Below, piece after piece: positions 24,223 to 27,762 of a stretch of DNA of 64,000 nucleotides (its first letter is position 1; every line of letters begins with the position of its first letter). The stretch is taken from the NCBI RefSeq assembly GCF_013167455.1, contig NZ_CP038328.1; one strand, given 5' to 3'. The DNA is from Escherichia coli O157:H7 (GTDB taxonomy: Bacteria > Pseudomonadota > Gammaproteobacteria > Enterobacterales > Enterobacteriaceae). The notes under the pieces are model-generated. The model had not been told where the DNA came from. It ran no database searches and saw only the letters and a program-made list of their open reading frames with translations. The translations under genes were made by a program, and so were the position numbers.

Positions 24223-24467
24223 GACTGCTTTACACAACCTTTTTGCACGTCTTTTCCCCAGGCGCGCGGCGAAAGAAGACTTGTGCCAGGGCAAAGGTTA
24301 GTTTTCGGATGGAATAATCTTCTTTCATAACCATTTGAATATAAAATAACTTTATCTCAAACCGTTATCATTTTGACTAAAGTCAACGAAAATAATATTG
24401 CCGCCTTGAAGAAAGGAGGTATAATCCGTCGATTTTTTTTGTGGCTGCCCCTCAAAGGAGAAAGAGT

Positions 24468-25179: not shown

Positions 25180-26469
25180 ATGACGCGCCGTGCTATCGGG
25201 GTGAGTGAAAGACCGCCACTTTTACAGACAATCCCGCTTAGTTTGCAACATTTGTTCGCCATGTTTGGTGCAACCGTCCTGGTGCCCGTCTTATTTCATA
25301 TTAACCCGGCGACTGTACTGTTATTTAACGGTATTGGAACGCTGCTGTATCTCTTCATCTGTAAAGGGAAAATTCCGGCTTATCTTGGTTCCAGCTTTGC
25401 CTTTATTTCACCGGTATTGTTACTGTTGCCGTTAGGGTATGAAGTCGCGCTGGGCGGCTTTATTATGTGCGGCGTGCTGTTCTGCCTGGTTTCTTTTATC
25501 GTGAAGAAAGCGGGGACCGGCTGGCTGGACGTGCTGTTTCCACCTGCGGCAATGGGCGCAATCGTTGCCGTCATCGGTCTGGAGCTGGCGGGCGTAGCTG
25601 CCGGTATGGCGGGTTTACTCCCGGCTGAAGGGCAAACGCCAGACTCCAAAACCATCATCATCTCTATTACCACCCTGGCGGTCACGGTTTTAGGTTCCGT
25701 GCTGTTCCGTGGTTTCCTGGCAATTATCCCGATTTTAATTGGCGTGCTGGTGGGGTACGCGCTCTCTTTCGCAATGGGAATTGTCGATACCACGCCGATT
25801 ATTAATGCTCACTGGTTTGCGCTGCCAACCCTCTATACGCCGCGCTTCGAGTGGTTTGCCATTCTGACTATTCTGCCAGCGGCGTTAGTGGTTATTGCCG
25901 AACACGTAGGGCACCTGGTAGTAACGGCTAATATCGTCAAAAAAGATCTGCTGCGCGATCCAGGTCTGCACCGTTCGATGTTTGCTAACGGCTTGTCGAC
26001 CGTGATCTCCGGCTTCTTTGGCTCCACGCCAAACACCACCTACGGGGAAAACATTGGCGTGATGGCGATCACCCGTGTTTACAGTACCTGGGTTATCGGC
26101 GGGGCGGCGATTTTCGCTATCCTGCTTTCCTGCGTCGGTAAACTGGCTGCCGCTATCCAGATGATCCCATTGCCGGTGATGGGCGGCGTTTCGCTGCTGC
26201 TTTATGGTGTCATCGGTGCTTCCGGTATTCGTGTTTTGATCGAATCGAAAGTGGATTACAACAAAGCACAGAACCTGATCCTGACTTCCGTGATTTTGAT
26301 CATCGGCGTCAGTGGCGCGAAGGTAAACATTGGCGCGGCGGAGCTGAAAGGTATGGCGCTGGCGACCATCGTCGGTATCGGCTTAAGTTTGATTTTCAAA
26401 CTGATTAGTGTGCTGCGCCCTGAAGAAGTGGTGCTGGACGCAGAAGACGCGGATATAACAGACAAATAA
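25180..26469 (+). CDS. uraA: uracil:H+ symporter
   Basis: Track ORF starts at 25138; recognised N-terminus [15 protein letters not shown] at ATG 25180; polytopic membrane protein. Confidence 0.94.
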
Positions 26470-26563
26470 TGTACCGACCGGGCAGTGTTGCTGCCCGGTT
26501 CAAACATCATGGGATTCTGTGGTAAACTTCTCGCGATTTTGTGAAATCCTGGTTGAGGTATCT

Positions 26564-27265
26564 CTGAACACACCGGCACAGCTCTCTTTGCCACTTTATC
26601 TTCCTGACGACGAAACCTTTGCAAGTTTCTGGCCGGGGGATAACTCCTCTTTACTGGCCGCGCTGCAAAACGTGCTGCGTCAGGAACATAGCGGTTACAT
26701 CTATCTCTGGGCACGCGAAGGCGCGGGGCGCAGCCATCTGCTGCACGCGGCTTGCGCGGAATTGTCGCAGCGTGGCGATGCGGTGGGCTATGTCCCGCTG
26801 GATAAACGCACCTGGTTTGTTCCGGAAGTGCTCGACGGTATGGAGCATTTGTCGCTGGTCTGTATCGACAACATTGAGTGTATTGCAGGCGATGAGTTGT
26901 GGGAGATGGCGATTTTCGATCTCTACAATCGAATTCTGGAATCGGGCAAAACACGGTTGTTGATCACCGGCGATCGTCCACCGCGGCAGTTGAATCTGGG
27001 ATTACCGGATCTCGCGTCGCGACTCGACTGGGGGCAGATCTACAAATTGCAGCCACTTTCTGATGAAGATAAGTTGCAGGCGCTACAGTTACGCGCGCGT
27101 TTGCGTGGTTTTGAACTGCCGGAAGATGTGGGGCGTTTCTTGCTGAAGCGGCTCGACAGAGAAATGCGCACGCTATTTATGACGTTGGATCAGTTGGATC
27201 GTGCGTCGATTACCGCGCAACGTAAGCTGACCATTCCGTTTGTGAAAGAAATTCTGAAGTTGTAG
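26564..27265 (+). CDS. hda: DnaA-inactivating AAA+ protein Hda
   Basis: Track ORF from GTG 26519; recognised Hda sequence (…[18 protein letters not shown]…); start placed at the CTG at 26564 from recollection that Hda uses a non-AUG start; Walker A-like GAGRSHLL. Confidence 0.85.
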
Positions 27266-27279
27266 ATAAGGTGTTTATT

Positions 27280-27375
27280 GTCGGATGCGGCGCGAACGCC
27301 TTATCCGAACTACGCGAAGTTAATCCATAGAATTCGTAGGCCGGATAAGACGTGGCAAGCGTCGCATCCGGCAAT
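27280..27375. repeat. REP/BIME element between convergent hda and yfgD
   Basis: Two inverted REP-like units (gtcggatgcggcgcgaacgccttatccg… and …gtaggccggataagacg…gcgtcgcatccggc). Confidence 0.7.
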
Positions 27376-27402
27376 GTGCTTCAACTAGCGATGGAGCACA
27401 TC

Positions 27403-27762
27403 TTAACCCACGATTTCCAGTACCTGCTCCGGTGGACGACCAATCCGCGCTTTGCCATTCGCGACCACAATCGGGCGCTCCATCAGCTTCGGATTATCCA
27501 CCATTGCCTGAATCAGCGCCTCTTCGCTAAGCGAACTGTCAGCCAGGTTCAGTTCTTTATAAAGATCCTCTTTCTGGCGCATCAATTCACGGGCGCTATT
27601 CATCCCCAGCATTTTCAGCAAATCGCGCAGCGTTGCCGCATCGGCGGGTGTCTCAAGGTAGAGCACCACTTCTGGCTCCACGCCGTTTTCTTTCAGCAGG
27701 TTCAGCGTTTCCCGGCTCTTTGAACAGCGTGGGTTATGGTAGATTTTTACCTGTTTGGTCAT
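27403..27762 (-). CDS. yfgD: ArsC-family reductase-like protein YfgD
   Basis: Track ORF 119 aa; ArsC/Spx fold with N-terminal Cys (NPRCSKSRE). Confidence 0.9.
   Translation of the reverse strand: MTKQVKIYHNPRCSKSRETLNLLKENGVEPEVVLYLETPADAATLRDLLKMLGMNSARELMRQKEDLYKELNLADSSLSEEALIQAMVDNPKLMERPIVVANGKARIGRPPEQVLEIVG

Follow-up and report, generated by a model that had tools for sequence, protein, structure and literature searches.

The hda gene of Escherichia coli O157:H7 starts at a CUG codon at positions 26564-26566 of the analyzed stretch of contig NZ_CP038328.1 (64,000 nt; referred to as the window). This start has been known since 2008 and is already part of the reference annotation; the comparative result leaves existing knowledge of hda unchanged, and what is new here is the quantitative conservation evidence for the CTG, for its Shine-Dalgarno (SD) sequence and for a −10-like block further upstream (Table 1). 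We assign a probability of about 0.93 to the explanation as a whole, in which hda would be translated from this CUG by means of a GAGGU sequence, the codon would act as a throttle, the GTG at 26519 would lie within a putative hda promoter, and read-through of the hairpin downstream of uraA would be possible.

Table 1. Features of the uraA-hda region, in window coordinates.
Feature	Position	Strand	Basis and remarks
uraA (uracil permease) CDS	25180-26469	+	stop codon TAA at 26467-26469; RefSeq, mapped from L001 331-1620; ORF list
GC-rich hairpin, terminator-like	26476-26500	+	11-bp stem, 3-nt GUU loop; arms 26476-26486 and 26490-26500
TTCAAA, possible weak −35	26499-26504	+	4/6 matches; 18 nt upstream of the −10-like hexamer
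GTG, pre-2008 annotated start of a 248-aa Hda, not the start	26519-26521	+	shares its TG with the extended −10-like element
TGgTAAACT, extended −10-like element (TGn + TAAACT) of the putative hda promoter	26520-26528	+	conservation
GATTTTG, predicted hda transcript start followed by a T-run	26535-26541	+	distance from the −10 of 7 nt for the G and 8 nt for the A; predicted position
GAGGT, Shine-Dalgarno sequence	26555-26559	+	invariant in 81/81 species; GAGG-to-CTG distance 5 nt in 80/81; same layout in 5 species of other families
CTG (CUG), hda initiation codon	26564-26566	+	RefSeq CDS start; literature; invariant in 81 + 5 species; only invariant one of 31 conserved Leu codons
hda CDS, DnaA inactivator Hda	26564-27265	+	233 codons + TAG; NF005982; same protein sequence as K-12 Hda and the Hda portion of PDB 5X06
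QLSLPL, beta-clamp-binding motif, codons 6-11	26579-26596	+	sequence; corresponds to 6-QLSLPL-11 of Kim et al. (2017)

The open reading frame (ORF) list and the RefSeq annotation show, one after the other, purM (−), upp (+), uraA (+), hda (+), arsC/yfgD (−) and bepA (−), and 94 nt separate the uraA stop codon from the hda CTG. The initial annotation had described the Hda frame as open from GTG 26519, had named this GTG as the only upstream start-like codon with no in-frame ATG near the start, and had placed initiation at CTG 26564 and not at the GTG. The frame is indeed open, as the ORF list contains a GTG-opened ORF of 248 aa at 26519..27265 (+), in which the CTG is the in-frame codon 16, located 15 codons past the GTG. 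A scan of the window gave the same picture of the start codons: the upstream in-frame stop is a TAA 36 codons before the CTG, GTG 26519 is the sole in-frame ATG, GTG or TTG in between, and the first canonical in-frame codon 3' of the CTG is a TTG at codon 9. The placement at the CTG agrees with RefSeq for both O157 and K-12, with EcoGene and Su'etsugu et al. (2008), and with the comparative data. An 11-codon ORF in another frame of the spacer (26509-26544, + strand; ATG GGA TTC TGT GGT AAA CTT CTC GCG ATT TTG TGA) is probably no gene, its ATG and frame not being conserved in other genera. A search of Rfam returned no family within the uraA-hda spacer.

A 1-kb query spanning the hda start region was matched in 5,425 of 5,426 complete E. 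coli genomes, and the O157:H7 strains were 100% identical. The K-12 gene (b2496) is the same gene: between positions 26440 and 26640 no base differs from MG1655, the Hda proteins have 0 amino-acid differences, and the CDS coordinates are the same after mapping. As start region and protein are identical, the K-12 literature is directly applicable. The RefSeq/PGAP annotation of O157 places hda at 1715-2416 of L001, which corresponds to 26564-27265 of the window and encodes 233 aa from the CTG; in MG1655 the gene (2618075..2618776, − strand, NP_416991.2) is likewise annotated with a CTG start. EcoGene 3.0 gives the CTG start of hda and credits it to Su'etsugu et al. (2008; J Biol Chem 283:36118), and among the literature full texts an explicit statement of the CUG start was found in EcoGene 3.0 only. 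The crystal structure of Hda with the clamp uses a numbering of 233 residues, with the clamp motif at 6-QLSLPL-11 (Kim et al., 2017), and the sequence of PDB 5X06 consists of a tag followed by MNTPAQ..., which was aligned to residues 16-248 of the GTG-opened ORF. When beta-clamp-binding motifs of the form QL[SP]LPL were looked for in the first ~12 residues, QLSLPL was found at codons 6-11 counted from the CTG.

The comparison set consisted of 81 species from many genera of Enterobacteriaceae, namely that of the window and 80 others from one genome scan, with Hda identities of 92-100%. All 81 hda coding sequences had 233 codons and no indels, and the codon at the start position was CTG in every one of them. 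Thirty-one alignment columns encode Leu in each species; codon 1 alone is invariant at the nucleotide level, while the other 30 vary synonymously and include TTG in 25 cases. Extended to all amino-acid-invariant columns with degenerate codons (n = 163), the count of codon-invariant columns was only 3, codon 1 among them. At no time in the 81 species was the CTG swapped for the canonical TTG, which is one C-to-T transition away. Judged by this alignment, the CTG is conserved far beyond chance and beyond the need for the amino acid, and is constrained as a codon. Its invariance without a swap to TTG indicates selection for a weak start, which would be consistent with the low abundance of Hda given in the literature (~50 dimers per cell).

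The flanks of the codon were compared in the same set. When the frame was walked upstream from the CTG, a stop was encountered before any ATG, GTG or TTG in 46 of the 81 species; an in-frame stop lies 7 codons up in 27 species and 14 codons up in 26. The indels of the uraA-hda spacer in the 81-species alignment are not multiples of three, so that the region upstream of the CTG reads as non-coding. On the downstream side, the first canonical in-frame start is a TTG at codon 9-13 in 51/81 species, inside or just after the clamp motif; a start inside QLSLPL would truncate the motif and a start just after it would delete it.

The hairpin that follows uraA is a conserved structure. It folds with −21 kcal/mol (z = −4.5), and 0 of 200 shuffled sequences folded as well. 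It is kept in about 80 of the 81 species with 47 distinct stem variants, all of which are still complementary. Its core, CCGGGC/GCCCGG, is nearly fixed in sequence, and inner pairs covary, with compensatory changes: at pair 7, 16 species have A-T, 43 have G-C and 17 have G-T, and at pair 8 G-C, A-T, T-A and C-G all occur. The tail 3' of the stem is UUCAAACA, with UUCAAAC directly after the stem and no U-tract, as an intrinsic terminator would have, and a terminator scan that required at least 5 T in 8 bases did not call the hairpin. A listing of RNA 3' ends (Adams et al., 2021) contains nothing for uraA and, within hda, only one antisense 3' end. The initial annotation had placed a uraA terminator hairpin at 26477-26500 just upstream of hda; the hairpin is there, to within 1 nt, whereas a canonical terminator is not borne out. 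The description as terminator-like is fair, and terminator status is unproven. Since no U-tract follows the stem, part of the transcription could continue into hda.

The antisense site just mentioned is located at MG1655 2618272 (+), which corresponds to window ~27068 on the − strand (Adams et al., 2021, supplementary table). On this evidence bepA-yfgD transcription, which is convergent with hda, seems to extend ~335 nt into the 3' part of the gene.

Between the hairpin and the SD sequence lies the block TGnTAnACT, in which T26520, G26521, T26523, A26524, A26526, C26527 and T26528 are invariant in all 81 species. It has the composition of an extended −10 element, a TGn followed by a hexamer with T1, A2 and T6 fixed and position 3 free, and its distance to the CTG is 33-39 nt in all species. 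As TGnTAnnnT the block recurs in Yersinia, Erwinia, Dickeya, Proteus and Xenorhabdus, and in the last two it is kept without uraA or the hairpin upstream. Upstream of the block, G26497, G26498, T26499 and T26500 (GGTT, the 3' end of the hairpin, overlapping the possible −35) are invariant although their 5' pairing partners vary; downstream, G26535, T26537 and T26538 are invariant in the 81 species. The predicted leader and start region are not unusually structured (z = +1.0). A simple promoter scan of 26000-27500 called nothing, the hda −10-like element scoring 8/12 against a threshold of 9. We consider it probable that the block is hda's own extended −10 promoter. A putative transcription start site (TSS) at G26535, ~7 nt past the hexamer, would leave GTG 26519 off hda's own mRNA, and the discarded start codon is, as far as can be read from the alignment, most likely part of the putative hda promoter.

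The same block could instead have another function, for instance to bind a protein or to act at the RNA level in a joint uraA-hda transcript, and hda would then be expressed by upp-uraA read-through only. The TSS table of Kim et al. (2012), which is of low depth, has no start in the uraA-hda spacer and the putative −35 is weak, and TGTGGTAAA is two positions off a DnaA-box complement (TGTGnAtAA). The invariant positions (TG, T1, A2, A4, C5 and T6, with position 3 variable) agree better with an extended −10 than with a DnaA box, however, and TGTGGTAAA as a DnaA box was for this reason ranked below the −10 reading. Persistence of the block in Proteus and Xenorhabdus, with no uraA upstream, and its constrained distance to the CTG also speak against this alternative, which we regard as unlikely. 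The initial annotation had proposed that expression of hda might depend on a weak spacer promoter or on transcripts that read through from upp-uraA. This was a reasonable suggestion, with which the invariant −10-like element and the hairpin without a U-tract are in keeping and against which the missing spacer start of Kim et al. (2012) has to be set; of the two routes, the promoter appears the better supported. The same authors assign to hda a TSS of 2 reads at U00096.2 2617463, which falls inside uraA (window ~25899, +), 665 nt upstream of the CTG, and which is very weak evidence for a promoter internal to uraA.

The putative hda promoter resembles that of upp. The upp promoter reads TATAAT-ccgtc-GATTTTTTTTG (window 24420-24441, +) and the hda sequence reads TAAACT-tctcgc-GATTTTG (26523-26541), so that in both a G/A and then a T-run follow 6-8 nt after the −10. 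The GATTTTTTTTG stretch of the upp promoter corresponds to the classic UTP-sensitive element for start-site selection and reiterative transcription of upp-uraA. These two properties of the upp-uraA promoter were reportedly described by Tu and Turnbough in 1997. The invariant bases after the hda −10 are C-G-W-T-T-T. In 77 of 86 species three or more T follow in a run that begins 8-10 nt past the −10; in 7 the sequence is just GATT, and a T-run is missing from Proteus and Xenorhabdus. The likeness is a resemblance only, as the T-run is 4 nt long in hda and 8 nt in upp and is absent or 2 nt in 9/86 species. By analogy with upp, hda might combine its own extended −10 promoter with GATTTTG as a short version of GATTTTTTTTG and be tuned by UTP, through start-site choice or reiterative transcription, next to hairpin read-through; we hold this to be improbable. 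If it were true, UTP tuning of hda and the weak CUG would make the level of the DnaA inactivator, and thereby replication initiation, depend on pyrimidine supply. The T-run could equally be a U-rich leader that aids the weak start, or plain conservation around the TSS.

Two products of the gene might also be envisaged, with the main 233-aa Hda made from the CUG and a minor 248-aa isoform made from GTG 26519 on RNA that reads through the uraA hairpin, in E. coli and its closest relatives. As the hairpin lacks a U-tract, a read-through RNA that carries the GTG is plausible, and the GTG frame is open in E. coli, in the Escherichia sp. isolate L002, in E. albertii and in a few others. Even near the genus, however, this frame is not conserved, since in L003, which carries the label Escherichia coli, the frame meets a stop 14 codons up. 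The GTG moreover is without a good SD, and a 248-aa isoform would bury the N-terminal clamp motif. Such an isoform thus appears very improbable.

The reading of GTG 26519 as the actual start, with Hda as the originally annotated protein of 248 aa, can hardly be maintained. [quoted passage not shown] (2012) still used a 747-nt (248-aa) model. It has since been replaced in RefSeq and EcoGene. In the 46 species counted above the frame between GTG and CTG is closed by a stop or holds no canonical start, no conserved SD precedes GTG 26519, and the codon sits inside the invariant −10-like block. Nor do the 15 extra residues of the GTG-opened ORF have a profile match. The Hda protein scored 476.6 bits against the NCBIfam equivalog NF005982 (cutoff 268) over residues 14-248 of the GTG-opened ORF, and 281.4 bits against TIGR03420 (cutoff 194.8), and the first 13 residues matched no family profile. 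The GTG as a start is already contradicted.

Initiation further downstream at a canonical start, either TTG (codon 9) or GTG (codon 37), with the CTG merely a conserved leucine, would account for the shorter models given by gene callers that disallow CTG (225-aa entries and a 678-nt Klebsiella model), but it deserves next to no credence, since the QLSLPL motif for clamp binding would be cut short or lost with either start, TTG stands at codon 9 in only 43/81 species, and the CTG is uniquely invariant among the Leu codons and stands behind an invariant SD at ideal spacing.

With initiation at the CUG, which the literature establishes, the 30S subunit would be positioned by GAGGU, which pairs with the anti-SD of the 16S rRNA 5 nt upstream of the CUG. 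The initiator fMet-tRNA (anticodon CAU) would read the CUG with a mismatch at the first position and give an N-terminal Met, and with this Met as residue 1 the beta-clamp motif would come to lie at residues 6-11. Further upstream, we infer that the −10-like block would serve as the promoter, that the transcript would probably begin near G26535 with a leader of ~29 nt, and that the hairpin would mark the end of the upp-uraA message and allow some degree of read-through into hda. In a reporter study (Hecht preprint), CUG initiation amounted to 1-2% of that of AUG, with a range of 0.02-3% by construct. At ~1-2% of AUG efficiency the codon would represent a built-in throttle that keeps Hda scarce, and selection would hold it fixed, also against the single C-to-T change to TTG. 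We infer the limitation of dosage as the purpose of the CUG from the conservation pattern and the low copy number.

By converting DnaA-ATP to DnaA-ADP, Hda keeps chromosome replication from over-initiating, and its dose is critical. The abstract of the 2008 study by Su'etsugu and colleagues reportedly places a CUG start downstream of the codon then annotated, with the suggestion that Hda is thereby limited to ~100 molecules per cell; the CUG start is in this sense a known device that keeps Hda low. A near-cognate start codon is also found in infC, which encodes IF3, starts with AUU and is subject to a demonstrated IF3-dependent autoregulation. Both infC and hda are essential or regulatory genes with a conserved near-cognate start, and for infC weak, IF3-discriminated initiation sets the protein level. 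A feedback loop through IF3 has been demonstrated for infC, whereas for hda low efficiency and low abundance are documented. EcoGene 3.0 gives yfjD (CorB family) as the second confirmed CTG start of E. coli. As for hda, this chromosomal CTG start was predicted from conservation and the ribosome-binding site and was confirmed by mutagenesis; the protein is unrelated to Hda.

The hda gene can serve as a positive control for genome scans, as a true non-canonical start was recovered from raw sequence that is missed by most gene callers. Its signature combines a codon that is fixed in 81 species and never TTG with an equally fixed SD and with what looks like a promoter over the old GTG, and it might be used to find other weak starts under selection.

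The GAGG + 5 nt + CTG layout of E. coli recurs in 5 species of other Enterobacterales families (Yersinia, Erwinia, Dickeya, Proteus and Xenorhabdus), where the sequence reads tGAG GTG CTT CTG AAy. In these five genera (L083-L087, positions 398-409) an in-frame GTG lies two codons before the CTG and overlaps the SD, and this upstream GTG is used in many annotations ('MLLNTP', 235 aa). CUG use outside E. coli is therefore putative. The databases carry mis-starts of 225, 235, 241 and 248 aa for hda. Both a 233-aa (CTG) and a 235-aa (GTG) model can exist within one species, for example in Hafnia paralvei (P0032 and P0028). At 5 more distant gammaproteobacterial hda loci (L088-L092; 45-64% identity), the starts chosen by gene callers are GTG, GTG, TTG, ATG and TTG, that is, non-ATG in 4 of 5. 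With n = 5 and starts taken from gene callers, weak start codons may be a more general trait of hda beyond Enterobacterales.

Two further observations concern the protein and the 3' flank of the gene. An E. coli Hda variant of 258 aa (P0001) has an internal tandem duplication of ~25 residues across the box VII/arginine-finger region. The intergenic region between hda and arsC (yfgD), at 27273-27407, gave sub-threshold matches to naRNA4, a REP-derived family of Rfam (28-31 bits vs a gathering score of 59.5), and contains, on both strands, palindromic repeats of the REP/BIME type, GCCGGATAAG...CATCCGGC.
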